This document shows positions 8,264-60,409 of a DNA stretch of 64,000 nucleotides, one piece after another. How positions within the stretch are numbered: the stretch's first letter is position 1; each line of letters starts with the position of its first letter. A model generated the notes under the pieces. It did not search any database. It worked only from the letters and a program-made list of their open reading frames with translations, and was not told where the DNA came from. The DNA lies in IMG/VR virus record IMGVR_UViG_3300029131_000181; one strand, written 5' to 3'. This DNA comes from a virus. Both the position numbers and the translations under genes were made by a program.

Positions 8264-8440
8264 TTATTTCTCCTTTTATGCTGCGGATGCAAAGATGTCA
8301 CCGCAAGGGCAGTTATAAAACATTTTATACCGACTTGTCACGGCCGATATATCCCAATTCTTAATATCTCTCTCCTTTTTTAGAAAATTTTTATCGCTGC
8401 GAATATCTTTATGGCATCGTGATATTCGCAGAATAATTGT

Positions 8441-11847: not shown

Positions 11848-14568
11848 TCAGCCAAAGCTGAGCTGCTCTGAGTCAGTTGAAAAGAAAGCTGCCTTTTTCT
11901 TTGCCTGCTCTTTTGCACTCTTACTCATCGGTTTCTTCGTGCCGTCCAGATGATGCTTGCTCTTGTACGAATACCCTTTCCAGGCAGCCTGATAGGAAAG
12001 GTAGCCATATCCGTTAGCGTTGTCCAGGACCTTATCGGTAGCCGTCTCGACCACAACATAACGGGGCTGGTTGGGCTTTGAGAGCTCATCGCTTTTCACG
12101 ACACGGTAGCTCTTTTTCTCATCTACACCGTACTTGGAGAACGGCAATGCGGATTCCTTTTGGGGTTTGGCTTTTGCCTTGGTATTTTCGGTATTTCCTT
12201 CGACGGAATCCACCAGTTCAGAGTCAAAGAACGCCTCATCAAGCGGTACATTGGAGCTGTTCTGCTTCTTTGCTTCTTCGATTTTCTGATACATGGCATC
12301 TTCGACACGGCGCATCTTCCAGACCTTGATGAGGACCTTTTCCGGGAACGTGATGGTCAGTCCCTTTTCCGCCAGCATCTTTCGGACAGCAGGCGTAGCG
12401 AAAGACTTGTATTTTGCATACGGTCCTTCTTTGTGCTGCTCGATTTCATGGCTTACCTGAGTCATGTATTCCTCAAACGCCTTGTTCTGGTCGAGCCAGA
12501 AATCGACTTCGGAATAAGGAGAATCATGGTCCACGGTTTTTTGAAGTTCGCAACTCTTCGCATAAGCAAGACAAGCGTCTTTCACATCGGCAAAACCAAG
12601 CCCAAAATTATCGTTCAGAGTGTTTCGGCGTGCTCCATCCATCACGAAATAACGGCTTCCTTGCTTGATGATGGCGATACCATCTCCGGAAGTGATAGTG
12701 GTGGACTCTTCCGCATATCCGTCGTCAGTCCAGCGGTCGATAATCGATGCCGTATCCTGTACAAAGCCTTTTCGGCAGGTGTAATAATCCGCGCCGTTGT
12801 AAGCTCGTTTCGTGATGCACTTGAGGATTGCGTCAATCAGAGCGTCCTTATCCTTGATTTTTACGCTGTACATCAGGTTACTTTTCACGTTCCAGACAAC
12901 GCCATATGGAAGTCCCAGCGCAATCATAGAACACGCACACTGCAGAAAATGCTTGTGTGCCAGACTGCTGATGAACTTGATGCAGTAGACGGTGTTGTTC
13001 TTTACGACATCCGCAAGGCCCGAGGCATAAATCACTTTATGGTCATTAGTATGGATGTCGATATCTCCGCGTGCCTGAACATACTCATCGGGAGTGAACA
13101 CGGTGCCAAGCCGCATACTGAGCGACATTTTGGCTTTTGCGCTCACAAAAGGAGGCTTGACCTGTTTTACATACCGGCACTGATTCGTTTCAAGCGCCGT
13201 GAGCAGCAGAACCTTATCCTCGACCGTTGCGCCTTTCTTGATTTTCAAATACTGCATGTCCTTGTGTAGGTCCATGTAATAAGCGAGTGCGTCATCGATA
13301 TCATAGGAATTAAAGAAGCCTGCCTGCATGTAGATACTGATACAGGGGGACAAATCAATCATGGCATCCGCTGCCTGCACATCGATGGTCGTATTGTCGT
13401 TGTGCTCAATCGGTGTGACTTCCAGCAGCTTATAGCAAGCATCAACATCTTCGATGAATTTGTGGTCGAACATCTCGGAGAACGAAAACGGATGCCGGAA
13501 CACGCAATTCATTCCAGTCGGAGTCATCAGGGATTTATCGCTCAACGGATGGTCATAGTTCACGAAGATAATCCGCTGCTTTCCTCGGCTTGCTGCGACA
13601 CAAAACAGATTCCGAAGAATCTCATATCGTGACATCGGCTTGCTTGTGCGGGACGACCAGTATTCTTCAGTGAAATCGAACACGACACAGATAGGGCGCT
13701 CCATACCTTTACTGCCGTCAAATGTTGTGAAGATACCAACATCTGAGGAAGGTGCTACCGCCTTATCCCCGTCATTGTCCGCGATACTTGCATAGACGTG
13801 ATGCTTGTCATAGAGGTTTCCGGGGCGATTTTCCAGGTCATTGAGCACCTTTGTCATAGCTCCGATTCGAGCGCCCAGACACAAAACATCTTTCGGATTT
13901 TGTTTATTCAGAAACTCCGTCACCTCATCGACTGACATCTGTTCCACGATGCAGGAACCATTTACGCCGTTGATGGTCTTGCCCCAGATATTGCCGAGTC
14001 GTTCTGCCAAGTCATGAGAAATACGGAAGCATTTCGTGAAAACCACCTGTTCATGGCGGCCGAGAAAATCCTGCATGAACTCCCAGACATCCAGCGCTGT
14101 ATCATCGTAGATTTTCTGCTTCATATCGCCCACTGCGACGATTTGAAGGCCCGGATTCTGAGAACGGATATATTTGAGCAGTTCTGCAATCTCGTCATTG
14201 ATATCCTGATACTCGTCAATGATAAGAGTATCAATTGGCGGAATCGGAATTTTCTTTTCCAATACCATGGCAAGCTGTTCACCCTGCCCGCAATTCCGGA
14301 TTCCCTTTTTGTTCAGCAGCAGGCTTGCAAATCCATGATAGTTCTGAACCAAGACATTATGATTTTTGATTTTGTCTTTGGCGTCAAGTTTGAGTAATCG
14401 GTTATAGGTCAAGTACAGGATACGCCGTTCTGGAGGGTACGCATCACAGAGCACGTTGATGGTCGATGTTTTTCCGCTGCCAATGCAGGCATCACATAAT
14501 ACGTTTTTGCCCGACAATGCCAAATGTACGAATTCCTGTTGTTCGCTTGACAAGTTGTTCAGTGTCAT
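11848..14568 (-). CDS. UvrD/Rep-type SF1 helicase with long C-terminal extension
   Basis: Walker A CIGSGKTST and IIDEYQDIN motif. The ORF track starts at TTG 14574, but ATG 14568 is preferred. No good RBS remains because of the adjacent tnpB insertion. Confidence 0.85.
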   Translation of the reverse strand: MTLNNLSSEQQEFVHLALSGKNVLCDACIGSGKTSTINVLCDAYPPERRILYLTYNRLLKLDAKDKIKNHNVLVQNYHGFASLLLNKKGIRNCGQGEQLAMVLEKKIPIPPIDTLIIDEYQDINDEIAELLKYIRSQNPGLQIVAVGDMKQKIYDDTALDVWEFMQDFLGRHEQVVFTKCFRISHDLAERLGNIWGKTINGVNGSCIVEQMSVDEVTEFLNKQNPKDVLCLGARIGAMTKVLNDLENRPGNLYDKHHVYASIADNDGDKAVAPSSDVGIFTTFDGSKGMERPICVVFDFTEEYWSSRTSKPMSRYEILRNLFCVAASRGKQRIIFVNYDHPLSDKSLMTPTGMNCVFRHPFSFSEMFDHKFIEDVDACYKLLEVTPIEHNDNTTIDVQAADAMIDLSPCISIYMQAGFFNSYDIDDALAYYMDLHKDMQYLKIKKGATVEDKVLLLTALETNQCRYVKQVKPPFVSAKAKMSLSMRLGTVFTPDEYVQARGDIDIHTNDHKVIYASGLADVVKNNTVYCIKFISSLAHKHFLQCACSMIALGLPYGVVWNVKSNLMYSVKIKDKDALIDAILKCITKRAYNGADYYTCRKGFVQDTASIIDRWTDDGYAEESTTITSGDGIAIIKQGSRYFVMDGARRNTLNDNFGLGFADVKDACLAYAKSCELQKTVDHDSPYSEVDFWLDQNKAFEEYMTQVSHEIEQHKEGPYAKYKSFATPAVRKMLAEKGLTITFPEKVLIKVWKMRRVEDAMYQKIEEAKKQNSSNVPLDEAFFDSELVDSVEGNTENTKAKAKPQKESALPFSKYGVDEKKSYRVVKSDELSKPNQPRYVVVETATDKVLDNANGYGYLSYQAAWKGYSYKSKHHLDGTKKPMSKSAKEQAKKKAAFFSTDSEQLSFG

Positions 14569-14577
14569 AGCCAAATT

Positions 14578-14760
14578 CGGACTTCCAACTTTTCACGGGT
14601 TGCCCCGTTACTCAGTATGGATTTCTGCTTCATAGAGCGAGCTTACCGCAAGCCGCAGCTCTTGATAGAGGCTCGCTCTCCACAGACTTTAAGATTCGGT
14701 CGTCCTGACCGTACTGTTCGCCTGTGGTTATGAGGCGGCTGGCGTAGCCAGCATGTCCAT
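14578..14760 (-). ncRNA. TnpB omega RNA / right-end region (extent approximate)
   Basis: GC-rich nested hairpins overlapping and following the tnpB 3' end (GAGAGCGAGCC...GGCTCGCTCTA, CGGGGCAACCCG). By analogy to characterised TnpB loci. Confidence 0.5.
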
Positions 14761-15837
14761 TCCTTTCTTTAGAATGTTTTCTGCTGCATTTTTATCCCTA
14801 TCGTGTGATGTGTTACATTTCGGACAGACCCAATGCCGAACATTGAGGTTTTTTACCTCTTTGTTTTGGTAGCCGCAGCAAGAGCAGGTCTGGCTGCTTG
14901 GATAGAAGGTTGGTATTTTTACAACTACTCTTCCTGCCCAACTGGATTTATAATCAAGTTGTCGGAAGAACTCTCCCCAAGAAACATCGGAAATACTTTT
15001 AGCAAGGTTATGATTGCGAACCATACCATTTACATTGAGGTCTTCTACACAGATGATTTGGTTTTCTTTCACCAGTGTAGATGACAACTTGTGTAGGGCA
15101 TCTTTTCGCTTATTGGTCACTTTTTCGTGGCAGCAAGCCACCTTGATACGTTGCTTCTCCCAGTTGGCAGAACCTTTCTTTTTGCGTGACAGCTTTTTCT
15201 GCTCACGCTTTAGTTTAGCTTCCGCTTTCTGAAGATATTTATTGTTTGGATATTCTTTTCCATTGCTGTCAACAGCAAAAGATTTGATGCCAACATCTAA
15301 ACCGATGACGGTATCTTTAACCGGAAGCGGCATTACTTCTACTTTGCAAAGAATACTTACATAGTATTTGCCGCTTGCTGAGCGACGGATTGTTGCCTTA
15401 CAGATGCGTCCCTCAATGTTGCGACTCTTACGATAACGCATCTTCCCAAGTGTCGGAAGCTGAATGTACTTATCGTCAACTTTAATGCTTTTTGCTTTTG
15501 TAGTTGTATAGCTTTCTTCTCCCCGTTTTCGTTTGAATTGGGGGAACCCTTTACCGTCTTCGAAAAAGCCTTTATAGGCATTATTTAACTGACGACAGCT
15601 ATATTTGAGTGCTTGACTATCTACTTCAGCAAGCCAAGGAAGATAAGTTTTCATCTGAGGAAGCAGATTTTGTGTATCAATATAGCTCATACTTTCACCG
15701 CGCCGTTGATAAGCTTTTATACGCCTATCTAGCATAGAGTTATATACAAAACGGCAGCAGCCGAGCGTTTTATTGATTTTGACTTTCTGTTCTTCTGTTG
15801 GCTCTAGCCGAAATTTATAGCCTTTATGTACTTTCAA
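14728..15837 (-). CDS. tnpB: TnpB (OrfB) RNA-guided nuclease
   Basis: [18 protein letters not shown]-terminus, RuvC motifs ([26 protein letters not shown]) and zinc ribbon CSCCG..CPKCN. TTG start with AGGAGG RBS. Confidence 0.95.
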
Positions 15838-15921
15838 AGTGGCTCACCTCCTTTATGGACTTTTGTGCTCATGAGTTATTCAGACCCCCCGGAAAAAGTT
15901 GAATAGCCCCAAATTCTCCTT

Positions 15922-15969
15922 AACAAACAAAATGCCCCGGCAGCATCCAATTCAGAAGCCGCCAGGGCA
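15922..15969 (-). terminator. leader hairpin + U-run downstream of promoter copy 4
   Basis: Minus strand TGCCCTGGCGGC-loop-GCTGCCGGGGCATTTTGTTTGTTAAGGAG. Two G:U pairs are valid only in the minus-strand RNA. Confidence 0.55.
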
Positions 15970-15991
15970 CAATTCTTATCTTATTAGGGTT

Positions 15992-16019
15992 ATTATATCT
16001 GATTCGCACAGATGTGCAA
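15992..16019 (-). promoter_or_regulatory. motif-class promoter, copy 4
   Basis: TTGCAC-ATCTGTGCGAATCAGA-TATAAT. Now separated from the helicase gene by the tnpB element. Confidence 0.6.
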
Positions 16020-17283: not shown

Positions 17284-18807
17284 TCAGGCAGCCATCTTCG
17301 CTGCGGTTTTGCCCTTCGGACCCTTCTTCCGTGCATTGGCTTCAAGCTCCTTCTTGTTGGTATCATACCAAACCTCGAACTCCTTGAAGTTGTTCAACGC
17401 CCAAATCTCAGGAGAAGCCTTGCGACCGTAAGTTTCTTCCAACAGGTGGATAACTTTGCGGCCAACTTCTTCCATGATTTCGGCATCGTATTTGCCGCCA
17501 CCGCAGTAAAACCCTTCAGGCATAATAATGTCGTATTTAGGGTCAAGAACTTCAAGCCCCGGCTCCAAAACGCGAATGCCTTTGTAGCCAGCTTTGCGTA
17601 CAGCTTCAAATTTGAAGCGGTCCTTTTCGGCAGCATCTGCGTGCGGATATTTTCCATTATACTCATAAATGAGTCTCTGGATATGGTCCACGAAGTCTAA
17701 TCCCAAAAGACTATTTTCGCCCAAGATGTTTCGAACATCAAAGAAGGGGTTGGCAATTCCGTTTTCACCGGCAAATGCCAACATGGGACGTGTGTAAAAC
17801 CACTCCGGCTTGGAAATGGCATTGATTCTTCGCATTTTGCAGTCGTAGCATCCAGTAAGACCGTTGTTCACAGAACGAACAATATTGTTAATTGCAGCTT
17901 CGAATTCTTGCCCGCAATCACGGCATTTGAAGAAGGCTTTTTTGTTGCTTTGAACAGTTACTTCTGAAGCAGAAAGCTTGTTTTTACTACTCCACATGGA
18001 GGCTGCTTTCGGACATTGCGACGCAAGGTCATTGATGCCGGGAACAACCCTCCGACCTACGCAAACTAGGCATCCAGTGTTGCCGTTTTTTACAGCACAA
18101 ACAACATCTCCAATTATGGCTTTGAACTCTTGCCCACAATCCGGGCACACAAAGAAAGCTTTTTTCCCGCTTTTAGCTGTGACTTCTGAAGCGGAAAGCT
18201 TATTTTTATTACTCCACATAGCGGCTGCTTCTGGGCACTGTGACGCAAGGTCATTGATGCCAGGGGCAACTCTTAGTCCTCTGCAAACAGGGCAACCTGT
18301 GTTTCCGTTACTTACAGAATAGACAACGTGTTCGATTTTGGCTTCAAATTCTTCCCCGCAGTCCGGGCATACGAATATCGCCTTTTTGTTGCATTTGACA
18401 GCAATTTCCGAGGCAGACTTTTTGTTTTTGTTACTCCACATAGCTGCAATTTCCGGGTATTTCGACGCAAGGTCGTTGATGCCGGGGATAATCTTTCTTC
18501 CTGCGCAAACAGAGCAACCCGTGAATCCCTTGTCTACAGAACGAACAACATTAAAGATTCTGCTTTCAAATTCCTGCCCGCAATCAGGACACACAAAAGT
18601 GAGTTTTTTATTGCTTCCAGTAGTAACTTCAAAGGCAAGTTTCTTATCTTTTTCGCTCAGCATTGCAGCTACTTTTGGGCAAGCAACAGCAAGGCAATTT
18701 TTCTTAACCACTTCATACGGCATCTCAATGCCAAGAGCCGGAATAGGAGCGCAAGAAGCGCAGTTGCAAGAGTTAGCGTGCATCATAATTTTCATGTTAG
18801 TATTCAT
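17284..18807 (-). CDS. zinc-ribbon repeat protein with C-terminal Vsr/DUF559-like domain
   Basis: Trimmed to MNTNMKIMMH (AAAGGAG RBS). Four 74-aa repeats of the form PGINDLAS..P..AAMWS.KNK.SASEV......FF.CPDCGQEF......V......GNTGC.VC. C-terminal LDFVDH..IYEYNG..H resembles the Vsr-like nuclease core. Confidence 0.75.
   Translation of the reverse strand: MNTNMKIMMHANSCNCASCAPIPALGIEMPYEVVKKNCLAVACPKVAAMLSEKDKKLAFEVTTGSNKKLTFVCPDCGQEFESRIFNVVRSVDKGFTGCSVCAGRKIIPGINDLASKYPEIAAMWSNKNKKSASEIAVKCNKKAIFVCPDCGEEFEAKIEHVVYSVSNGNTGCPVCRGLRVAPGINDLASQCPEAAAMWSNKNKLSASEVTAKSGKKAFFVCPDCGQEFKAIIGDVVCAVKNGNTGCLVCVGRRVVPGINDLASQCPKAASMWSSKNKLSASEVTVQSNKKAFFKCRDCGQEFEAAINNIVRSVNNGLTGCYDCKMRRINAISKPEWFYTRPMLAFAGENGIANPFFDVRNILGENSLLGLDFVDHIQRLIYEYNGKYPHADAAEKDRFKFEAVRKAGYKGIRVLEPGLEVLDPKYDIIMPEGFYCGGGKYDAEIMEEVGRKVIHLLEETYGRKASPEIWALNNFKEFEVWYDTNKKELEANARKKGPKGKTAAKMAA
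17790..18681 (-). repeat. 4 x 222-bp in-frame tandem repeat inside the CDS
   Basis: ACTCCACA landmark recurs at 17989, 18211 and 18433 (period 222). Limits approximate. Confidence 0.8.
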
Positions 18808-18927
18808 GATAGATTTCTCCTTTGTTATCAATAAAAATAAAAAAGCAGCCACCCTTCCCTCTTTTGAGGGCAAAAGCGACTGCTTTACGTTCAATGGGTA
18901 TTGAGTTGTTATTCATGAAGAATTGCT

Positions 18928-19113
18928 TCACTCGTCCAGCATAACCTGCAAACGGGCGTTGAATTCCTTCATGTCGGCGCTTTCCTCGGCTGCAGCAAGG
19001 ACACGCGGATAAATTTCCGGATTCATGCTCTTCAGCATGTTCAGAGTAGAAAGAAGCAGAGGGTTGGTGATAGTCATAGTAAGCATCTCCTTGTTATTCA
19101 TAGTAATGTTCAA
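18928..19113 (-). CDS. hypothetical small protein
   Basis: 61-aa ORF whose stop-proximal region is followed by the next gene. The upstream gene overlaps by 4 nt. Confidence 0.45.
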   Translation of the reverse strand: MNITMNNKEMLTMTITNPLLLSTLNMLKSMNPEIYPRVLAAAEESADMKEFNARLQVMLDE

Positions 19114-19952
19114 ACGTTGGTATTCGTGCGATGGCCTTTCAGCGTGCCCTTGTTGAACTGTGTCAAACGGGCGTGCTTCAGAACAAATCCGTCTTCGAAT
19201 TGAACGTCAACGGCGTTTGTGCTGATGATGCGAATGATGGTTGCTTTCGAGCCATCATTCATGGTCTTGGTCATAGGTCCGCTATACTCGACCTTAAAAT
19301 CGAAAGGAAGCGGCTTATGCTTGGTGCAGCAGGGACAAGAAGAACTGCCGTTATTGATGCAGTGGACAAGAGAATTCACGTGAGTGACGTATTCTTCTCC
19401 GCAATCCGGGCATACAATGACGACCTTCTTGCAGCTATTGGCACTTACTTCACGCGGGGAGAAAGCGTTTTTGCTGCTCCACATTTTTGCCACGGCAGGA
19501 GATGTGGTTGCCAAGTCATTGGTTCCGGGAACGACTTTCATGCCACGGCATACGGGGCAAGTGAAGGTTCCATTCTCGATGTCTTTGACCAAAGAGATGA
19601 TTTTTGTTGTGTACTCTGCATGACAATCAGGGCATACAACAATCACCTTTTCGGGACTGTCACAGCGAACTTCGTCGGGATGAATCGTGTTTTTAGGACT
19701 CCACATAGCTGCAATTTTGGGATACTTGGTAGCCAAATCATTGACTCCGGGAACAAGCTTTTCGCTATGGGTTTCTTCGGCTTTGAATGCCGTAGTTACC
19801 TTACGGTTTTTGACCGTTTTGAATCGGCAGACAGGGCAGGCAGTTACGCCACGCTGCTTAGCTCTAACAAGGTTTGCCTCGTAGGTTGTGTATTTGCAAC
19901 CGCAATCGGGGCAGATGGTGATGACTTTTTCGTTCATGTTAATGTTATTCAT
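19110..19952 (-). CDS. zinc-ribbon repeat protein (paralog of 17284-18807)
   Basis: Trimmed to MNNINMNEKVITICPDCG. Three CPDC..CPVC treble-clef-like units with VPG.NDLAT linkers. Weak RBS. Confidence 0.65.
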   Translation of the reverse strand: MNNINMNEKVITICPDCGCKYTTYEANLVRAKQRGVTACPVCRFKTVKNRKVTTAFKAEETHSEKLVPGVNDLATKYPKIAAMWSPKNTIHPDEVRCDSPEKVIVVCPDCHAEYTTKIISLVKDIENGTFTCPVCRGMKVVPGTNDLATTSPAVAKMWSSKNAFSPREVSANSCKKVVIVCPDCGEEYVTHVNSLVHCINNGSSSCPCCTKHKPLPFDFKVEYSGPMTKTMNDGSKATIIRIISTNAVDVQFEDGFVLKHARLTQFNKGTLKGHRTNTNV

Positions 19953-20008
19953 GATAGTTCCGGGTGCTGCTCTTGATGCAATCTCCACAGCGGGTCGGTC
20001 GCTTCTGC

Positions 20009-20044
20009 AAAACAAAAAGGACAACCTCAAAATGAGGCTGTCCT
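20009..20044 (-). terminator. leader hairpin + U-run between promoter copy 7 and gene
   Basis: Minus strand AGGACAGCC-loop-GGTTGTCCTTTTTGTTTT. Confidence 0.6.
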
Positions 20045-20100
20045 TGCAAAAGCGGAATGTTAAAAATAAATTGGTAAGTGGTATCTTTGATACAACATCT

Positions 20101-20128
20101 ATCATAGCCATCTCGCACACATTGTCAA
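20101..20128 (-). promoter_or_regulatory. motif-class promoter, copy 7
   Basis: TTGACA-ATGTGTGCGAGATGGC-TATGAT. Confidence 0.55.
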
Positions 20129-20129
20129 A

Positions 20130-20169
20130 CAAAAAAAGACCCTGCCCGCATTTTGCTGCGAGCAGGGTT
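20130..20169 (-). terminator. rho-independent terminator
   Basis: Minus strand AACCCTGCTCGCAGCAAAATGCGGGCAGGGTCTTTTTTT, after gene 20189-20509. Confidence 0.75.
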
Positions 20170-20188
20170 TGCTTTTGCACTGTTGTGC

Positions 20189-24844: not shown

Positions 24845-25981
24845 TTACATATCCGACTTCGCCGCATTACACTTCTTGCACAGCATCTGCAGATTGTCAT
24901 CAGTGGTATGTCCGCCCTTGCTCCAAGGAATGATGTGGTCGCCTTCCATATCCTCAAAGGCGTACTCGGTGTTGATGCCATTTGCAACGCACAAGGGGCA
25001 CTTGTGACCCTGCCGCTCATAGGCGCGGAGTTTCTGCGACTCAGTAAATGCACGAAGGGACAGATGCTTTTCGTCGCGCCAAGTGCGGTCAGAGAGGATG
25101 AACGGGACAATGCCTGCCTTCTTGGTCACGTCATCATCCAGCACGAGTTTCTTGATATCAGCGTCCAGAGCGTTGCTATTATACTGCTTTGCATGGTACT
25201 TGTTGTAGAGTAGTCCCCATGCCTGTGTATCCGTAATTCCCTTCCGCTTGGTCGGGAACAACATTTTAGCCCAGTTGATTACAGACTGGAAGTAAAGCCA
25301 GAGGTCATTGGCGTCCTCGTCATGCTGGTGAATCGCCATGTACATCTGCCCGGATTCCAGACCATCACGGTCAGCAATCCACGCCAGTGCCTTTTCCAGC
25401 AACTCCTGCCGAATCGGGTTACCTTTCAGGTATCCGTCAGCCATCTTCGCAGCAACACAGTTGCGTTTCGAGAAGTAGTTCTTGGCATCGGCCAGCCACG
25501 GTCCTGTATAAGTAGCGTTCAGCAGCTCCTGCGGAGTCAACACCTCACCGGCGATGTTGATGCGCTTGAACCATTCCAGTTTCTCGGCTTCGGAGCCTTC
25601 ACAGATATTCACGGTCAACTCGTAGTCCAGAATTTTCTGTTTTTCCTCATCTGTCAAGTTCTGGAAGAACTTGTCGTTGCCGTTGATTTTGACGGGGAAA
25701 TCCTTGTTGACATACTGTGCAATGGAAATTGTCCGCTGTTGTCCATCGAGAACCTCGTAGGTATCTGGACCGGTCTTGGACCAGTACATGAGGTTCAACG
25801 GGAATCCGTTCATTACCGAATCAATGACGGCTGCACGCTGTTTATCGGAGAAGCAAAAATTTCTTTGGTAGCTTGGCCTAATCGTGAGGCGATTGTTGTA
25901 CCCATATACGCCACTGTCTCCGTCATCCGAATAGTTCTCTACAAGGTCGGATACCTTGATTTTGGTTTCTGTGATTTTCAT
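24845..25981 (-). CDS. DUF262 (GmrSD N-terminal-like) + HNH endonuclease fusion
   Basis: IRPSYQRNF..EVLDGQQRTISI is the DUF262 hallmark. C-terminal HKCPLC..GDHIIPWSKGGHTTDDNLQMLCKKCNAAK is an HNH motif. ATGA overlap with the upstream gene. Confidence 0.85.
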   Translation of the reverse strand: MKITETKIKVSDLVENYSDDGDSGVYGYNNRLTIRPSYQRNFCFSDKQRAAVIDSVMNGFPLNLMYWSKTGPDTYEVLDGQQRTISIAQYVNKDFPVKINGNDKFFQNLTDEEKQKILDYELTVNICEGSEAEKLEWFKRINIAGEVLTPQELLNATYTGPWLADAKNYFSKRNCVAAKMADGYLKGNPIRQELLEKALAWIADRDGLESGQMYMAIHQHDEDANDLWLYFQSVINWAKMLFPTKRKGITDTQAWGLLYNKYHAKQYNSNALDADIKKLVLDDDVTKKAGIVPFILSDRTWRDEKHLSLRAFTESQKLRAYERQGHKCPLCVANGINTEYAFEDMEGDHIIPWSKGGHTTDDNLQMLCKKCNAAKSDM

Positions 25982-26862
25982 AACAATTTCCTTTCTCTGC
26001 CCACAATGTTAATATCGTCAGCACTTTTTATAATTGCTTTTATTATATTCTGCGTCAACTCATATTTAGAAATTACATGCTTTTTGGCAGATGCATAAGA
26101 AGCGGCATTCAGACGCATCACATCCTTTTCTTTCGCATTGCGAATCAATCTATTCTCCTTTTGCAACGAAGAGTTGCTGCCGCATGATGTAACGCAGTAA
26201 ATTTTTGGCGACAATATTGTGATAACCATATGATTTGATAAACTATATTCTGTGCCTGTGTTATTCAAACAGCCTGTACCCAGCACAAGCCCTATATCCG
26301 GAAGTAAAATGGCGCTATTGTTTGCTTTATAGATAACGGTTCCTGAACTGTAATATCCAATTTTTACTTTATAGTAGTTCCACTCATTATCAGATAACTT
26401 TGGATGGTTCCCCGTCTGTATAAATTTCATGAAATTGCAAAATGCTTCTTCTGTATCGAACAGTTTTTTTATTTCGTCTATATACGATGGTAGCCTGAAC
26501 AGCATACGCAAGGCATACTCTCCAAGCCAATGCGCAGATTCTTCGGATATTCTATTTTCCGAATTCAAATAAGTTGTTTTATCAATTTCATTAAGAATTT
26601 CGTTCAACTTTTTCGCATCAGAATTCTCAATATCATTGCTCAGGAGTCCTTTTTCAATCTTCCCACGATAGCATTCGTTCCATTTTTTGAGCTCTGGATA
26701 TTCATATAAATTGTTTTCCGCTGCAATACCTTTTACATTTGCCCCTACATGTATAATTTTTCCAGTTTCCTTGTTATATACAAAAAAATTTCCGTCTTTT
26801 CCAGCGAATTTTTTCAGTCGGTATTTTGGCAAATAATGTTGATTTTCATTTTGTACCTTCAT
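25978..26862 (-). CDS. DUF4238-like protein
   Basis: Trimmed to MKVQNENQHYLPKYRLKKFA (AAAGGAGG RBS). The N-terminal HYLPK..LK.F signature is recalled from DUF4238. AT-rich. Confidence 0.6.
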   Translation of the reverse strand: MKVQNENQHYLPKYRLKKFAGKDGNFFVYNKETGKIIHVGANVKGIAAENNLYEYPELKKWNECYRGKIEKGLLSNDIENSDAKKLNEILNEIDKTTYLNSENRISEESAHWLGEYALRMLFRLPSYIDEIKKLFDTEEAFCNFMKFIQTGNHPKLSDNEWNYYKVKIGYYSSGTVIYKANNSAILLPDIGLVLGTGCLNNTGTEYSLSNHMVITILSPKIYCVTSCGSNSSLQKENRLIRNAKEKDVMRLNAASYASAKKHVISKYELTQNIIKAIIKSADDINIVGRERKLL

Positions 26863-27910
26863 CGCCTTGCTTCCTCCTTTTTCTGATAAAAATTCTCTGA
26901 TAAACTGCAGAAAGCTGCACGCCATCAGGGCTTACCGAAAAGTCGCTCCTTCCTCTTTTAACAACTTTTGGTGACATCTTATCTCTTAATGCACCAGAGC
27001 CGGAGATTGTTACGCCATCCGCCTTGAAGAACTTAAAGCCAAGGCTTGTATAATCTTTATCGGCTCTGCAAGGCGTATCATCGAACATGGAACCACCAAC
27101 AATCTCAAACTGCTCCGGATTATACTTATCCAAAAAAGTGATAGGCACGCCCATAACGCCTTCATAGTCCACCGGAATATTCGCAACCCTATCCACATTG
27201 ATGGCCATGTAGTTATCATAGCGGGGGTAGCGCTCTTCCACGTCCGGCAGAGGGTTTCCGTCATCGTCATAGTACCGCTGCCAGAGAATCAGTTTCTCGT
27301 GGCGCTTCTGGATGTCGAGGTTAGTAAACCATCTTGTTAGACCGTTGATTTTCTTTGTTATTCCATTGGGGGTATCAAACTCGGATGGTGAGCTATAACC
27401 AATCCACACTTTGTTTTCTTTCAGAAGTGGAAAAAACTCTTTGTATGTAATGGCGTTCTTATTCCCGATAATCAGGAACTTTTTGCCGTGCTGCATCAGT
27501 GTGCCAACATACTCACGGAATAAGCTGAATGGCGGATTGGTCACCACGATATCACTTTCATCCAGCAAGTCAAGGCATTCCTTGCTCCGGAAATCGCCGT
27601 TGCCTTCCAGCAGGGTTTTTACACCGACTTCCACATCATTATCATCTCCGCCCTCGTACTCCATCTTGTAGGTTGGTTCGGTGTGGTCATAGTGCGTAGA
27701 AATCAGCTTCTTTAAGCCAAGTTCTGCAAAGTTCAGGTGAAAATACCGCCAGAAAGCGGACCATGTCGGGTCGTCACAGTTGCAGAATACAACCTTGCCT
27801 GCGAAATGCTTCTTGTAGTGCCGCAATTCCTCTGCGACATCCTCGATTCTGGTGTAGAACTCATCATTCTTCGCGTCCTTCGCCTTATGAAGGTTATCGT
27901 TCTTTGCCAT
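26846..27910 (-). CDS. N6-adenine DNA methyltransferase (EcoRI-methylase-like family)
   Basis: Trimmed to MAKNDNLHKAKDAKNDEFYTR..VVFCNCDDP..LGLKKLI. Catalytic VVTNPPFS. Confidence 0.85.
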   Translation of the reverse strand: MAKNDNLHKAKDAKNDEFYTRIEDVAEELRHYKKHFAGKVVFCNCDDPTWSAFWRYFHLNFAELGLKKLISTHYDHTEPTYKMEYEGGDDNDVEVGVKTLLEGNGDFRSKECLDLLDESDIVVTNPPFSLFREYVGTLMQHGKKFLIIGNKNAITYKEFFPLLKENKVWIGYSSPSEFDTPNGITKKINGLTRWFTNLDIQKRHEKLILWQRYYDDDGNPLPDVEERYPRYDNYMAINVDRVANIPVDYEGVMGVPITFLDKYNPEQFEIVGGSMFDDTPCRADKDYTSLGFKFFKADGVTISGSGALRDKMSPKVVKRGRSDFSVSPDGVQLSAVYQRIFIRKRRKQGDEGTK

Positions 27911-27923
27911 GTCTATATCTCCC

Positions 27924-27959
27924 AATAAAAAATCCAGCACCGAATTACTCAGCACTGGA
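27924..27959 (-). terminator. hairpin + U-run directly before the methyltransferase RBS
   Basis: Minus strand TCCAGTGC-loop-GCTGGATTTTTTATTGGGAG. Overlaps the stop of the upstream gene. Confidence 0.5.
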
Positions 27960-29813
27960 TGTATTTTCCGTATTACAATGACCGCATGATGTTTTCTTGT
28001 TTTCTACAAGACTTTGGGTTATCGCAAAGCATTCGTTTCCGCAATCACATTGACATTTCCATCGAGCATGACCGTTTTGGCTTCCTGCTCTCTCAATGAC
28101 CTTTAGCTTACCAAAGTGCATATTAGCTAAATCGTAAGTTCTTCCTTTTTTGACGAACTTATCGCGTGATGGATTTGCTTTCAAAAAGGCATCTGCTTCC
28201 TCTTCTGTCATGCTTTCGTATTCATTGGCAAATAACCAATGATATCCTCCGGCAACTGTACGTAGCTTGTTGCAGCAGTTCAAGATAGGCGAACCGCCGC
28301 TAATCCCGTATTTAAGAGAAGCCTCTTTTGCTGTAGAAAATCTCTCTTTTGTTTCAACGCAAATCACACTCTTGAAGTGTTTTTGTTTATAGCATTCAGG
28401 GCAGTTATGCCCGTATACTCTATCGGCTATTATCATCTTGTAGGAATGACCGTTTTTGCATTTCCACCAGCATTTTTCTGCAGACCCGGATGAGAAATAT
28501 TCGGGCTTCAAATTCTTGTTTTTTTCGTAATCCCATTCAGCAACAATTTCAGGATGTTCTGTAGCAAGGTTGTTCTTTTCGTTCCGTCTTCTTTTGCCTG
28601 TTGTACAAACAGGACATGTTGCGTTTTCTTTTGCTCTGCCATTGATGGGTGCTTCCCATTTATGCCCGCACTTAGAGCAAATCCAATGAACCATTTCTGA
28701 GCTAGATGATGACACCATCATCGGGTCAATGCCTACATTCAGTTCGTAGTCCCATTCTTTCAGGAGTTCCGGATGCCGTCCGCCCATACTTCGTTCAGCT
28801 TTGTAATCTTTGTATTGACGATAGATGTCTTTTGAATCCTTTTGTGTATCAATGTTAGGTTCAGAAACGCCAAGCATCTCTAAGCATTGGCGAATTGCTG
28901 CGTCGAGCGTTGCGTGCCCTCTATTGTTTTCTCTGATGATATTCTCGCTATTACGAATTTCCTGAAGCCCATGCTCGCGAATACGAATTATCCGAATTCC
29001 ATTCTGCTTGCATTTTTCGGACTTTTCTTCGTCATTTTTCACTCTTTTCTCATCAGAATGGTATCGAACACCATCGTATTCTACTGCAGTGCGAATGGAG
29101 GGGATGTAAATGTCCAGCTCTTTTCCAATAACTTTCTTGTTTCCAATAACAGCCTCTGAAAAATACTTTTTTGCATAATACGCTACTGCTTGTTCTTGGA
29201 ACGAGGTCTGTCCTTTATCGATAGTGCTGCATATCGGGCAACTCTTGATACGCTGGATGTAATGATATACGCTTGCCTGCCATTCCGTGCCACAAGCAGA
29301 GCATTTCCACCATACAACAATATTGCTTCCTTGTGTCAGCATACTGACATCTACGTCCTTATTTTTTGCAAAGTCATAGTCTTGCATAGCTTCTGCATTA
29401 TCTACAAGCATTTTCGAAGCTTCGGTAATGTGTTTGCAACAACCGCAAGACTTCACTTTTCCCCGCAGCAAAGAAGAGCGATAAGCAACAAATTCTTTTC
29501 CGCAGCTACACATACAGTTATAACGAATGTTTCTATGCCCCGTGCTTCCAATCGCATCTTCTGCCAAAGAAATAACTTTGATACCGTTGTGTTCTTCGCC
29601 AACCAAATCCTGGTATGTACGTTTACGGTCTTTACCTCGGCAGTCTTTACACTTTAACCCTTTCAAGAGCGCGTCGATACCAATTATCATTGTGTTTCCG
29701 CAGCAGTTACATTTCACCAAATAGGTATCTGCTTTTGAATTAGAGCCGGGGATAGTTTCGAAAACTGTTAAATCTCCGTATGTTTTGCCTGTTCTATTTA
29801 TTTTCGCCGCCAT
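27945..29813 (-). CDS. mosaic zinc-ribbon / Vsr-like endonuclease / NUMOD-like HTH protein (homing-endonuclease-like)
   Basis: 622 aa. CxxC ribbons throughout. KELDIYIPSIRTAVEYDGVRYH is a Vsr/DUF559-type core. HPELLKEWDY..WICSKCGHKW is a DUF4379-like ribbon. FSTAKEASLKYGISGGSPILNCC..GGYHW is a NUMOD/IENR-like HTH. Confidence 0.75.
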   Translation of the reverse strand: MAAKINRTGKTYGDLTVFETIPGSNSKADTYLVKCNCCGNTMIIGIDALLKGLKCKDCRGKDRKRTYQDLVGEEHNGIKVISLAEDAIGSTGHRNIRYNCMCSCGKEFVAYRSSLLRGKVKSCGCCKHITEASKMLVDNAEAMQDYDFAKNKDVDVSMLTQGSNIVVWWKCSACGTEWQASVYHYIQRIKSCPICSTIDKGQTSFQEQAVAYYAKKYFSEAVIGNKKVIGKELDIYIPSIRTAVEYDGVRYHSDEKRVKNDEEKSEKCKQNGIRIIRIREHGLQEIRNSENIIRENNRGHATLDAAIRQCLEMLGVSEPNIDTQKDSKDIYRQYKDYKAERSMGGRHPELLKEWDYELNVGIDPMMVSSSSSEMVHWICSKCGHKWEAPINGRAKENATCPVCTTGKRRRNEKNNLATEHPEIVAEWDYEKNKNLKPEYFSSGSAEKCWWKCKNGHSYKMIIADRVYGHNCPECYKQKHFKSVICVETKERFSTAKEASLKYGISGGSPILNCCNKLRTVAGGYHWLFANEYESMTEEEADAFLKANPSRDKFVKKGRTYDLANMHFGKLKVIERAGSQNGHARWKCQCDCGNECFAITQSLVENKKTSCGHCNTENTSSAE

Positions 29814-30568: not shown

Positions 30569-31969
30569 ATGATTTATGTTAACCTCGCCATGCCCGTGAT
30601 TTTCTATAAGCAGCTGCCCGGCATCGCTAAGAAGCTGGATGTGGATGCTGATTTTTTGAAAGGCTTTCTCACCAACGCCAGGTGTTATGTCGAGGATGCC
30701 GGAAAAGGTGAAGTGCTTGAGCTGGACAACTCGGCCGACACGATAACGAAAGTTGTCGCAACCCATGAGAAGCGTTTCTATGGCGCGGAAGCCATTGTGG
30801 AATTCGCCAAGAGCAAAGGCGTGGATATTCCTGCACTGAACCATTTTGAACTTGGTGCAGATATCTCTGCCCATGCAACGGAAGACCAAGTTGCCAACAT
30901 CACTGCATTGGCCGCACGAGTCGAGCGCCTCAATAATCGGTACAAGAGTCTTGCCCGGCTTGAAGCCCCGGACGTCATCCTGATGAACGAAGCAAGGATG
31001 GTGCGTGACGCAGTAGAGCAGCTGGAAGATAACAGCGGTACATACTCCCCGGCTCTTGACCAGAACGGGGTTGCCTATCAATCCTTGAAGGATATTGGGT
31101 ATTCTCTTGTCACCGGTTGGGACAAGTCGGTACTTGAAAAGAACAGCAATAAGGATACGGAGGCCACCTTTCCCAAAGAGCCCGACTTTCAAAGGCTGGC
31201 ATCGCTGGTCAAAAAAGCCATCGGAACCCGCACACAGGGTAAGTTTGCGTTTCAAGCGGGGCTGACTCGTGGATATATCAGTAACCTTGCGAACGGCAAC
31301 GCGAAAGCTCAGCCGACCGAGAATACCATCAAGAAAATTGCAAGCGCAACAGATGCTGTCACGGAGAACGAGCTTCGTATCGCCTGTGGGTATGAGCCCT
31401 TGCCTGACGACGGGAAAGACAAGCTCTCTATGCAGCGTGCAAGCATGTCTGATGACGCATGGCAGAAAGACAACGTGGATGCATTCCTCTCTTTTCTGAA
31501 TGAAACGATTCCAATGTCCACTCCTCTTTCGTCCACTGAAATTCTTCAAGCTCTTTTCAAGGAAAAATACGGTGACAAGAACGACCAGATTCTGCTGGAA
31601 AAGGTCTCTGCCCCCGGCACCTATCGTACGGAAGGTACGGCTGCTAATGTCATTCTACCCATTCGTCTTTGTTGGTTCAGCTTCAAGCGGATGCTGATGC
31701 AGACTCTCTATGTAGGACTTATCGGGCATTACAGCAAAAACGATGAGCTGTACATTACCGGATACATTTCTTCTGTGAAAGAGCTGCATGACGCGGTTCC
31801 GGCGCTGCGAGGCGGCATTGATGCGGCCTATGACGCGAGTCTGCCGGAGGGAATCGACATCATGAAGTTCCCGGTATTTTACACGGCTTCCAATGTTCAG
31901 GAAGCATACAAGCGGGTCCAGCAGAAAATCGTCTCCAAAATTGACGAGTCAGCCGCCGTAAGCTTGTGA
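30569..31969 (+). CDS. XRE-type HTH-containing protein
   Basis: 466 aa with RBS AAAGGAG. Internal TRTQGKFAFQAGLTRGYISNLANGN is HTH_3-like. The 344-aa minus ORF opposite is a shadow. Confidence 0.75.
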   Translation: MIYVNLAMPVIFYKQLPGIAKKLDVDADFLKGFLTNARCYVEDAGKGEVLELDNSADTITKVVATHEKRFYGAEAIVEFAKSKGVDIPALNHFELGADISAHATEDQVANITALAARVERLNNRYKSLARLEAPDVILMNEARMVRDAVEQLEDNSGTYSPALDQNGVAYQSLKDIGYSLVTGWDKSVLEKNSNKDTEATFPKEPDFQRLASLVKKAIGTRTQGKFAFQAGLTRGYISNLANGNAKAQPTENTIKKIASATDAVTENELRIACGYEPLPDDGKDKLSMQRASMSDDAWQKDNVDAFLSFLNETIPMSTPLSSTEILQALFKEKYGDKNDQILLEKVSAPGTYRTEGTAANVILPIRLCWFSFKRMLMQTLYVGLIGHYSKNDELYITGYISSVKELHDAVPALRGGIDAAYDASLPEGIDIMKFPVFYTASNVQEAYKRVQQKIVSKIDESAAVSL

Positions 31970-32042
31970 CTTCAGTCATGAGTTAGGCGACTTTTCTCTT
32001 GATTTGTAATCTCACATATGGTATAATAATTATGGTGATATT

Positions 32043-32462
32043 ATGCAAATGTTCGTCAATAATAACCTGTCATATGGTAGAGGTTATGTTTACAATATTC
32101 AATATCATATTGTGTGGTGTACAAAGTACAGAAAACCAGTTTTGATAAACGAAACAGAACAATCGCTAAAAGAGTCTCTGCAGCAGACCGCCGAAACCAT
32201 AAAAATCAATATTGTAGAAATGGAATGCATGCCTGACCATATTCACCTGTTGGTGGAGTGTTCACCGCAGCATTTTATCCCGGATATGATAAAAGTGCTT
32301 AAAGGCAACAGTGCAAGAGCTATTTTTATCGCCAATCCGGACTTGAAGAAGCAACTTTGGGGCGGGCATCTTTGGAACCCAAGCTACTTTATTGCAACCG
32401 TCAGTGATAACACGCGCAAACAAGTACAAGAATACATTGCATCTCAAAAAATAAGAAACTGA
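32043..32462 (+). CDS. tnpA: IS200/IS605 Y1 (HUH) transposase TnpA
   Basis: YNIQYHIVWCTKYRKPVL, the PDHIHLLV HUH motif and C-terminal YIASQ tyrosine. Confidence 0.95.
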   Translation: MQMFVNNNLSYGRGYVYNIQYHIVWCTKYRKPVLINETEQSLKESLQQTAETIKINIVEMECMPDHIHLLVECSPQHFIPDMIKVLKGNSARAIFIANPDLKKQLWGGHLWNPSYFIATVSDNTRKQVQEYIASQKIRN

Positions 32463-32480
32463 TGAAAGGGGGGCTTCGCA

Positions 32481-33812
32481 GTGAAAATCACTTCCAGCTA
32501 TGCTGTGGAAATCAAAAAGCAGAAAATGTTCGACAATACTATAAAGATTTATCGCGAAGCCGTTTCTTTCTTGATTGGTTGTTTTAACAAAGAATGGGAT
32601 TCTATTCAAAAAGTAGAGGGTGCCAAATCTCGAAAGAGTTTTGCCGAGAAGTTAATTCATACTACAAAATACAGCACTGCTAAATATGATTTCGATGCCA
32701 AGTTTTATAAGTTCCCTAGTTACCTGCGCAGAGCGGCTATTCAAGCAGCACTCGGCTCTGTAAGCAGCTACTACAGTAGCCATAAGAACTGGGAAGCAAA
32801 CGGCAAGGTTGACAGGGAGCCAAAACTTCAATGCGATAGATTTTGCTTCCCGGCTTTTTATAAGACCGTTATGTATGAGGAAAGCAACAAACCAAACCAG
32901 TGCTATCTGAAGCTGTATAAAAACAATGACTGGGTTTGGGTTCCTATCGCAATGCGTGCCACCGATGTCAAATACATCACGAAATACTGGTCACATTGCG
33001 AAAAGAGTGCTCCTGCACTCGAAAAGAAGTACGGGAAGTATTTCCTACGCTTTGCCTTCGAGGAAGAGGTAAAACTCTCCGAAACTGAAATTCAAGACAG
33101 GCGTATCTGCGCTGTAGACCTTGGTCTCAATACTGACGCCGTGTGCAGCATCATGACTGCCGATGGAACTGTCCTTGCAAGAAAATTTATCAATTTTGCA
33201 AGTGAAAAAGACCATCTGTATCATGTGCTCAACCGTATTAAGCGTAAGCAAAGAGAACATGGACCTAAGAGTGCTGCTGCTATGTGGCGTTACGCCAAAG
33301 CCTTGAATAACGATATAGCGAAAAAGGTTGCTGCTGCGATTACTGAATTTGCTGTGCTTTATTCTGTAGATGTGATTGTTTTTGAACATTTGTCATTTAC
33401 AGGCAAAAAGCACGGTGGCAGTAAGGCACAGAAGCTGTCGATGTGGAAGCGTAATTCCATACAGGATTATGTGGAACACAAGGCGCACCGCTGCGGTATC
33501 CGGATTTCGCGTATCTGTGCTTGGGGGACAAGCAAACTCGCCTTTGATGGCAGTGGTGCTCTCAAGCGTGATGAAACCAATCGTGCCCTTGCAACGTTTG
33601 CAAGCGGCAAACAATACAACTGCGACCTAAGTGCGAGCTACAATATTGGCGCTCGCTACTTTGTCAGAGAGTTGCTAAAACCCTTGCCAGCGATGGTAAG
33701 GTCTCAGCTTTCGGCTAATGTTCCGGATGTTGAGCGTAGAATCCAAGTTACACTTGCCACGCTTAAAGTTCTGTATCCTGAGCTTAAAAAACTCAGTACA
33801 CAGGCAGCGTAA
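32481..33812 (+). CDS. tnpB: TnpB-like RuvC nuclease lacking the zinc-finger cysteines
   Basis: 443 aa with GTG start. RuvC triad candidates are CAVDLGLNTD, VIVFEHL and NCDLSASYNIGARYF. The usual CxxC..CxxC segment is replaced by WGTSKLAFDGSGALKRDETNRALATFASGKQY. Confidence 0.8.
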   Translation: MKITSSYAVEIKKQKMFDNTIKIYREAVSFLIGCFNKEWDSIQKVEGAKSRKSFAEKLIHTTKYSTAKYDFDAKFYKFPSYLRRAAIQAALGSVSSYYSSHKNWEANGKVDREPKLQCDRFCFPAFYKTVMYEESNKPNQCYLKLYKNNDWVWVPIAMRATDVKYITKYWSHCEKSAPALEKKYGKYFLRFAFEEEVKLSETEIQDRRICAVDLGLNTDAVCSIMTADGTVLARKFINFASEKDHLYHVLNRIKRKQREHGPKSAAAMWRYAKALNNDIAKKVAAAITEFAVLYSVDVIVFEHLSFTGKKHGGSKAQKLSMWKRNSIQDYVEHKAHRCGIRISRICAWGTSKLAFDGSGALKRDETNRALATFASGKQYNCDLSASYNIGARYFVRELLKPLPAMVRSQLSANVPDVERRIQVTLATLKVLYPELKKLSTQAA

Positions 33813-33985
33813 GATGTACAGATGCTAACTGAGTTATTAGTTTTCTTGCGGTGATGGCTCCCGTCTGGACGCCTGAGCTGAGGGATTACCGTATCTTTCG
33901 TTAGAACGCCGCTACCCATAAAAGGAGCGGGAAGCCCGCGACTTTAGTCGTGGGAGGATTCACTGTAAGGCTTCCGTTATCGCTT
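33813..33985 (+). ncRNA. TnpB omega RNA / right-end region (extent approximate)
   Basis: GC-rich hairpins, for example GGGAAGCCCGCGACTTTAGTCGTGGGAGG, immediately 3' of tnpB. Confidence 0.45.
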
Positions 33986-43570: not shown

Positions 43571-43689
43571 AGGGCACTTCTTCCTTCCGTCTCAAAGACA
43601 ATTTGCCGGGACTGTCTCCCGTTGCCCGCTGCTCGCCGCGTGGAGGCTGTCTTTTGGAGCAGCTGCGCGGACAAAACCGCGCTTTTGAG

Positions 43690-60408: not shown

Positions 60409-60409
60409 A

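Follow-up and report, generated by a model that had tools for sequence, protein, structure and literature searches.

What is understood of the biology of TnpB, the ancestor of Cas12, comes almost wholly from bacterial IS605 elements that move by peel-and-paste transposition. Elements of the IS200/IS605 family have neither inverted ends nor target duplications (PMC13565253, PMC7290912). In ISDra2, the omega-RNA scaffold is followed directly on its 3' side by a 16-nt guide, and the TTGAT target-adjacent motif (TAM) is contacted by residues Y52, S56, K76, F77, Q80, T123 and N124 of TnpB (PMC10097598). TnpB branches are also known that occur with DDE transposases and inverted terminal repeats (PMC10691335, Altae-Tran et al. 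2023), and the solo copies among DDE-linked TnpB and Fanzor transposons are thought to be mobilised in trans, with a TAM matched to the target preference of the transposon (PMC10691335, PMC3627910). 'Transposon non-restorative homing' has been proposed and is called untested in a review (PMC13565253). Here we describe a solo tnpB element of 1,332 bp in a 64,000-nt viral sequence (IMG/VR record IMGVR_UViG_3300029131_000181; 'the window' hereafter means this whole stretch), where it separates an SF1 helicase gene from its Shine-Dalgarno (SD) sequence. What appears to be new is a variant of TnpB transposon with inverted ends and target duplication; the kind of TnpB nuclease that it carries is itself known. 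All coordinates of the locus are given in the minus-strand reading unless marked (+).

Orthologues of the helicase, 95-99% identical, were found in 31 IMG/VR viral contigs. The site is empty (…GTTAAGGAGAATTTGGCTATGACA…) in ~24 of these related phage contigs, where the promoter, the leader hairpin and the ribosome-binding site (RBS) run straight into the helicase gene; 12 of them read …GTTAAGGAGAATTTGGCTATGACACTGAACGAC…, while the remaining empty contigs carry one of three variant spacers between SD and ATG. The element sits at the same place in 6 viral and 17 human-gut metagenome contigs. The empty relatives therefore establish that a solo tnpB element (14577..15908) was inserted between the SD and the ATG of the helicase gene, as the original prediction, made from the window alone, had proposed. 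The locus is laid out as AAGGAGA-ATTTGG / element / ATTTGG-CT-ATG, with the original helicase SD (AAGGAGA, 15915..15921, identified by comparison with the empty alleles) and the left copy of ATTTGG (15909..15914) on one side, and the right copy (14571..14576) and the helicase gene (11848..14568, ATG at 14568, UvrD-like by its Pfam AAA_19 and UvrD-helicase domains) on the other. The element has the same orientation as the helicase gene and lies in its 5' untranslated region (UTR), and 1.33 kb now separate the SD from the gene.

The pre-insertion site had earlier been reconstructed as AAGGAGAATTTGGGGCT-ATG from an 11-13-nt near-repeat flanking the element. Both members of this near-repeat are present, the left one (AATTTGGGGCTAT) at 15915..15903, 1 nt away from the 15904-15916 first assigned to it, and the right one (AATTTGGCTAT) exactly where it had been placed, at 14577..14567; the AAGGAG of the RBS is likewise real, but lies at 15921..15916, 2 nt away from 15914-15919. 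The reconstruction itself, however, did not survive comparison with the empty alleles: the ancestral site is AAGGAGAATTTGGCTATG, and the extra GG is the element's. The near-repeat proves to be a composite, in which ATTTGG is duplicated (GAATTTGG with the preceding GA counted, which has its match in the terminal GA of the element), the left GGCTAT is where the element starts, its first six bases being shared with other copies, and the right CTAT is host sequence (CT plus the ATG). Because no other site shows it, we attribute the resemblance of GGCTAT to CTAT to chance. The near-repeat as a whole exceeds chance and its 6-nt core is a real duplication, since the empty alleles hold a single ATTTGG. 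The caveat that the repeat might be part of the element end thus applies to one half only, the conserved GGCTAT, and not to the duplicated target; the accompanying remark that a flanking repeat is unexpected of IS200/IS605 transposition agrees with two reviews (PMC13565253, PMC7290912).

To compare insertions more widely, we examined 18 independent insertion sites from two lineages that share 75% amino acid identity. An exact 6-nt duplication was found at 8/18 sites (chance P ~5e-25), and one further site, L182, is off by a 1-nt slip only. The idea that the duplication was tied to the guide and target of the helicase site was not borne out by these counts; duplication is a trait of the element family. 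At 16 of the 18 sites, GA occupies positions -8/-7 relative to the left end, 6 nt before it (P ~1e-16, with a background GA frequency of 0.073), and at 13 of the 18 the full SD-like motif RRRGA stands before the left end, in the form of GGAGA (15915..15919) at the helicase locus. The duplication would measure 8 bp (GA plus six) if the ends are taken as symmetric, GG…/…CC, and 6 bp if the invariant GA is counted as the right end of the element.

A second site was found in both states, the occupied allele reading GGAGA-GAGATA / element / GAGATA-TTAAG and the empty allele GGAGAGAGATATTAAG; the empty allele is that of the window itself, near 8375, and of seven relatives. The unoccupied target AAAAAAGGAGAGAGATATTAAG lies at ~8360-8380 (-) of the window, and the corresponding site is occupied by a 93%-identical copy of the element in contigs L038, L040, L055, L001 and L012. 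Single-copy targets were thus verified against empty alleles at two sites, with near-empty relatives at two more; for the L056 site, the only relative found was a rearranged one. The sister lineage, known here from three copies of which a single 120-kb contig contributes two, has different end sequences and shows duplications of AAATAG after AAAGA and of GATTCC after GAAGA.

One site without a duplication, L049, is informative about how the two ends are joined. Its element-free relatives read …ACGAACGAAGA/GCTTGGAAATG…, and in the occupied allele the right end sits exactly against GAAGA, 6 nt separate the left end from another GAAGA ~60 bp upstream, the stretch between the two has been deleted, and the two hexamers are each native to their own flank. 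The ends therefore obey separate rules, the right one joining at the motif and the left one joining 6 nt past a motif. At three sites the right junction falls exactly 3' of RRRGA in the empty alleles. That the hexamer might instead be the element's first six bases, carried along from site to site, is ruled out, both by near-identical copies that differ in their hexamers and by the native hexamers of L049.

Comparison of ~30 insertion contexts sets the ends of the element at GGCTATTCAAC… on the left and …AAAAGTTGGAAGTCCGA on the right. These ends are 22-24-bp imperfect inverted repeats, the left one at 15885..15908 and the right one, which ends …GTCC, at 14579..14602, followed by an invariant GA (14577..14578); the 24-bp end sequence begins GGCTATTCAACTTTTTCC…. 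When the left 24 nt are set against the reverse complement of the right end minus its terminal GA, 16/24 positions match without gaps in the window lineage (shuffle p ~2e-4) and 21/24 in the sister lineage, compared with 7-9/24 in three canonical IS605 controls (p > 0.6). The right end carries a hairpin with an 11-nt tail, an arrangement homologous to canonical right ends finishing TCAA, and all right ends of the clade finish CCGA. No hairpin of significant stability was seen at the left end, for which DNA folding gave z-scores of +0.1 to +1.4 for three of the four lineages and -0.36 for the other. The possibility that the inverted repeat is mere palindromy of the right-end hairpin is partly true of the window lineage, but the repeat of the sister lineage reaches the outermost bases and the IS605 controls show none. 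Relatives from Bacillota at ~50% identity are canonical in all these respects: a Y1 tnpA gene lies upstream, the left end directly adjoins TTGAT or TTTAT, the hairpins are on the same strand, the right end closes with TTCAA or GTCAA, and the target is not duplicated.

Two groups of related copies have altered ends. An 86%-identical tnpB copy in a tRNA gene cluster (L048, L183, L185) has a right end in CCAA, not CCGA, and a divergent left end. The tnpB copies of L033-L036, L053, L054, L068 and L164, 99% identical to that of the window, are without the left end; in these a phage promoter of the TGTGCGAAC family stands directly before the tnpB SD, and the right end and a guide (ATCATTATGCTTGC…) are kept, followed by ATG. 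Such left-endless copies may have been immobilised or domesticated.

The tnpB gene (14728..15837) encodes 369 amino acids from a TTG start at 15837, with its own SD (AAAGGAGG), and its product has the Pfam domains OrfB_IS605, Cas12f TNB and HTH_OrfB_IS605. It aligns over its full length to ISDra2 TnpB (PDB 8exa/8h1j) at 45% identity (E 2.6e-95), with an intact RuvC triad (D191/E278/D361). All tnpB copies are intact, and the ratio of non-synonymous to synonymous substitution (dN/dS) among lineages is ~0.06, with dS up to 1.3. Six of the seven residues that contact the TAM in ISDra2 are replaced (S56Q, K76S, F77Q, Q80K, A or P for T123, and a gap for N124), only Y52 being kept, whereas TTGAT-flanked relatives retain all seven and TTTAT-flanked relatives change K76 and F77 only; the altered signature (…DSQALKY…) reaches relatives at 57% identity. 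These replacements would fit a new TAM. A scan of GTDB genomes with this TnpB returned nothing above 53% identity, so that no bacterial source copy was identified among them, and in a deposited phage collection a near-identity search with the locus gave no match and a protein search gave only TnpBs below 60% identity.

The omega-RNA scaffold region (14577..14761) overlaps the 3' end of tnpB and stops at the right end of the element. It folds with a z-score of -4.6, and in a consensus structure built from 10 copies, compensatory changes occur in 11 of the 48 pairs; one helix of the structure pairs GGAC near the stop codon with the terminal GTCC, and no Rfam family matched the region. Sequence conservation ends at …CCGA in all copies. 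By analogy with the architecture of ISDra2, the predicted 16-nt guide is ATTTGGCTATGACACT (14561..14576), which spans the helicase start codon and in empty alleles directly follows GGAGA (an empty allele reads AAGGAGAATTTGGCTATGACA…). In every empty allele observed, RRRGA precedes the guide-matching sequence, as GGAGA or GAAGA at three sites, and occupied alleles have …GTCC before the GA. RRRGA is thus our predicted TAM for this TnpB.

To follow the element among phages, we aligned occupied and empty alleles with the element removed. Several backbone haplotypes are common to the two states (L007 with L008/L009; L162/L160 with L016/L013; L163 with L001/L003), and the upstream gene content varies among the occupied genomes. 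Position 13 of the helicase coding sequence (14556), 21 nt past the right end, is A in 17/18 occupied alleles, the exception being L196, and G in 24/24 empty alleles; the occupied count includes L204, which has the right end and whose locus starts inside tnpB. No empty allele with A at this position was found, and there was no sign of precise excision among the alleles compared. Because occupied and empty alleles share several backbone haplotypes, these data suggest that the element spreads between backbones by homing-like gene conversion with tracts of at most ~60-100 nt, which makes the homing-type event raised in the original prediction plausible.

The distribution of spacers points the same way. 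Between positions -27 and +6 of the ATG, the empty contigs of L001-L031 fall into four variants of the spacer between SD and ATG (AATTTGGCT, TATAGCT, TATGGCT and TTAGAGTT, with counts of 12, 8, 3 and 1 contigs among the four; the variant spacers include GGAGATATAGCT) in genomes that are otherwise 95-99% identical. Occupied alleles are confined to AATTTGGCT, the variant matching the predicted guide ATTTGGCTATGACACT. Occupancy limited to the guide-matching spacer is what RNA-guided homing would predict, and the unoccupied variants may be resistance alleles.

We give about an even chance to the explanation that this is a non-autonomous TnpB/omega-RNA transposon, its nuclease of the ISDra2/IS605 lineage, which is without the marks of peel-and-paste and would combine staggered integration with homing. 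A transposase supplied in trans would cut both target strands 6-8 bp apart, preferring and orienting itself by the purine motif RRRGA, and integration in this mode would leave an 8-bp GANNNNNN duplication. Since RRRGA is often a Shine-Dalgarno sequence, the element would tend to enter 5' UTRs, to be transcribed from the promoter of the host gene. Owing to the duplicated target bases, a guide read off the right flank would match the empty allele immediately past the motif, the occupied allele would be immune, having …GTCC in the TAM position, and TnpB would cut the empty alleles of co-infecting relatives, whose repair would copy the element in. For the helicase, this would mean transcription by read-through and translation in the absence of its SD. 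More tentatively, and we would call it rather doubtful as a whole, a clade of ISDra2-like TnpB elements in human-gut phages may have dropped Y1 peel-and-paste for a mode that leaves inverted ends and a 6-8-bp duplication, retuned its TAM to the SD-like RRRGA, come to enter 5' UTRs, where it would use the promoter of the host gene, and, its guide still matching empty alleles through the duplication, now act as an RNA-guided homing drive between co-infecting phages. A bolder version would have the TAM binding of TnpB itself position and orient integration.

Several points weigh against staggered integration with homing. Ten of the 18 sites are without an exact duplication, one of these (L182) by its 1-nt slip, and just one non-duplicated site, L049, has been traced to a deletion. 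Part of the inverted-repeat signal coincides with the palindromic right-end hairpin. Oriented insertion beside an asymmetric motif is typical of HUH/Y1 enzymes and not of symmetric DDE transpososomes, so that the element looks like a product of HUH chemistry in its motif-oriented insertion and of DDE chemistry in its inverted ends and duplication. No DDE enzyme was detected among the 27 window open reading frames (ORFs) scanned, and exact searches of viral contigs with the right- and left-end motifs, which did not extend to matching ends in host genomes, gave no autonomous partner, every contig returned being a carrier of this family's tnpB. The element could also be shifted between backbones by the ordinary recombination of mosaic phages, and the TAM, the cleavage and the homing are all inferred.

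The wider search for a transposase was equally negative within its range. None was found within the element or next to relatives of the clade, no tnpA lies in or beside any clade member seen, and the end motif of the sister lineage gave scattered single matches of the kind expected by chance. Two further kinds of element were considered and set aside: IS607, with its serine recombinase and 2-bp core, does not fit, as the left end does not adjoin GA, and neither does an IStron or group I intron, as the left end is just 70 nt long and has no intron match. The window does contain a complete canonical IS605 at 31948-33965 (+), in the 3' end of a helix-turn-helix gene (30569-31969). It encodes the window's only Y1 TnpA (32043-32462; Pfam Y1_Tnp, E 4e-41) and a divergent second TnpB-like gene of 443 amino acids (32481-33812), and has a left hairpin CTTGTGACTTCAGTCATGAG after TTGAC and a right hairpin CCCGCGACTTTAGTCGTGGG followed by AGGATTCAC.

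Among the alternatives, the one that survives best, though we think it unlikely, is a modified HUH/Y1 single-strand mode in which the complementary ends pair in single-stranded DNA as one composite stem recognised by an HUH enzyme, the right end is joined after RRRGA and the left end 6 nt further on (for example on a nascent strand), leaving a duplication. It would account for the oriented, asymmetric target motif and for right junctions that lie exactly 3' of RRRGA in the empty alleles of three sites, as at an IS605 TAM, and it accords with the ancestry of the nuclease among Y1-associated TnpB elements and with the complementarity of left and right ends, kept in two lineages despite their differing end sequences. 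Its left-end joining step is speculative, however, no cognate HUH gene was found in these searches, and we know of no HUH transposase that yields a target duplication.

An ordinary IS200/IS605 element of the IS1341 type, peeled and pasted by a Y1 TnpA acting in trans, with the repeat due to chance or to an element end, is distinctly unlikely. Much of the element does look the part: the TnpB is ISDra2-like, the closest autonomous relatives (~50% identity) are canonical IS605 with Y1 TnpA just upstream, the right-end hairpin and its 11-nt CCGA tail are homologous to canonical TCAA ends, insertion is oriented beside a fixed short motif, and a Y1 TnpA gene is available at 32043-32462, in the window's own IS605 16 kb away. 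The hairpins of that IS605, CTTGTGACTTCAGTCATGAG and CCCGCGACTTTAGTCGTGGG, are however unrelated to the ends of the solo tnpB element, and the canonical relatives have neither duplication nor inverted ends. The left end, lacking a hairpin, stands 6 nt past the motif instead of abutting it, and the duplication is a true one at two sites with empty alleles, with near-empty relatives at two more, and is exact at 8/18 sites, when IS200/IS605 elements make none (PMC13565253).

We regard as very unlikely that the repeat is a by-product of TnpB itself, through a staggered cut, fill-in and capture of the element, or through the guide-target relationship suggested originally. The duplicated bases are indeed the first six of the predicted guide and adjoin the predicted TAM, but a guide that was copied at the previous site can have no match at a new one, and the left junction keeps its GA-plus-six rule at L049 though the right junction is elsewhere. 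ISDra2 TnpB, moreover, is said to have been found by Karvelis and co-workers in 2021 to cut ~15-21 bp from the TAM, not at 0 and +6/+8. Exchange of the tyrosine-recombinase kind (Tn916, Tn554) with a 6-bp overlap, the hexamers being coupling sequences brought from the previous site, would explain why about half of the sites have differing hexamers on their two sides, but is extremely unlikely and in its Tn916-like form was rejected, because near-identical copies differ in hexamer, the L049 hexamers are native to their own flanks, the duplicated sites are single-copy in empty alleles, and no recombinase was found.

Returning to the expression of the locus, a promoter-like site (15992..16019; TTGCAC-17 nt-TATAAT with an internal TGTGCGAAT motif) precedes the tnpB element and stands directly upstream of the helicase in the empty-site relatives. 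A sigma-70 consensus scan missed it because TTGCAC fits TTGACA at just 3/6 positions. It belongs to a motif family of the window (D2/D3) with a conserved TGTGCGAAT-like core and about a dozen copies, and this copy appears to drive the tnpB/helicase locus. In members of the family (D2/D3/D9), TTGC.. is followed by the TGTGCGAAT(T)-like core, which lies between the two hexamers (-35 and -10), and then by a TATAAT-like hexamer, with examples at 1583, 16971, 20551, 30294, 38381, 41529, 42740, 46253, 48136 and 48307; these sites resemble promoters or operators specific to the phage. The leader forms a hairpin followed by a U-run (15922..15969), resembling a terminator or attenuator, with an RNA fold of -34.5 kcal/mol (z -5.3); a variant from relatives has a z-score of -7.3 and paired changes that preserve the stem, and no Rfam family matched the leader. 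As first noted, the helicase has no evident RBS of its own: the interval 5-10 nt ahead of its ATG contains no canonical SD, and the closest stretch of purines (GGAAG) is 13 nt upstream. Between tnpB and the helicase ATG, neither a promoter nor a terminator was called on the minus strand, and transcription of the helicase by read-through from upstream is therefore likely.

Other features of the window include an ORF of 465 amino acids at 53107-54504 (-) with an RRXRR domain (PF14239, E 5e-46). This domain is typical of IscB-type OMEGA nucleases, and if the ORF encodes one, the 64 kb of this phage would hold three or more nuclease genes of the OMEGA type. An HDV-like ribozyme of the Faecalibacterium prausnitzii family (RF02682, 60.4 bits, above the gathering score) was matched at 43594-43663 (-), just downstream of a VWA-domain gene (43690-45384). 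Three tandem 222-nt repeats (69-76% identity) at 17848-18513 lie in a gene (17284-18894) that encodes multiple DUF4379 treble-clef zinc fingers, with related repeats in 19110-20180 and 27945-29813. Clusters of defence or anti-defence type at 24845-27955 and 57112-61438 (-), comprising a GmrSD-N+HNH nuclease, DUF4238, an EcoRI-like adenine methylase, ResIII helicases and an Eco57I-type methylase, fit the accessory region of a large phage.

If the homing account of the tnpB element is correct, it would amount to an RNA-guided homing drive, the 'non-restorative transposon homing' for which there is so far a proposal but no demonstration, and the clade would show that guide and TAM logic can be retained under a changed transposition chemistry, with a motif that coincides with ribosome-binding sites. 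The presence and absence of the element in many gut-phage genomes provide natural population data with which RNA-guided homing between viruses can be tested directly. A compact TnpB of 369 amino acids with a purine-rich TAM would widen the targeting range of genome editing, and in phage annotation, genes that apparently have no RBS may be split from it by an insertion of this kind.

Among inverted-repeat transposons, the ISL3 element ISArsp7 has 24-bp inverted repeats beginning GGCTCTTCG… and an 8-bp duplication (PMC6305408). The ends of the present element begin GGCTATTCAAC and GGGTATTCGAC (terminal bases GGCTATTC…), and its duplication is also 8 bp if the GA is counted. The similarity is limited to ~8-9 terminal bases, and no ISL3 transposase was found in our searches; we know, too, of no GA-specific, oriented target choice in ISL3, and we treat the likeness as a lead only. 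With the DDE-linked TnpB and eukaryotic Fanzor transposons (PMC10691335; Bao and Jurka 2013, PMC3627910) the element shares a TnpB-family nuclease within an inverted-repeat, target-duplicating transposon, but here no DDE gene was found, the TnpB falls among Y1-associated ISDra2-like sequences, and the motif is asymmetric and SD-like.

In its nuclease the element is closest to ISDra2 and the IS1341 group of IS200/IS605, with which it has in common the TnpB domains, 45% identity to ISDra2 with the RuvC D/E/D residues kept, an omega-RNA that overlaps the 3' end of the gene, a guide taken from the right flank, a right end made of a hairpin and a short tail, and oriented insertion beside a short motif. 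It differs from them in its 6-8-bp duplication, its imperfect inverted termini, a hairpin-less left end placed 6 nt past the motif, a motif that is RRRGA and not TTGAT or TTTAT, its 6/7 changed TAM-contact residues, and the absence of any TnpA associated with the clade members seen. In its distribution, by contrast, it resembles the free-standing homing endonucleases of phages (intronless homing of the SegF type), being a selfish nuclease gene between conserved phage genes, present or absent at one fixed site, with short co-inherited tracts and changed-target alleles that are never occupied. Unlike that of SegF-type enzymes, recognition here would be by guide RNA and TAM, with both cleavage and drive as predictions.

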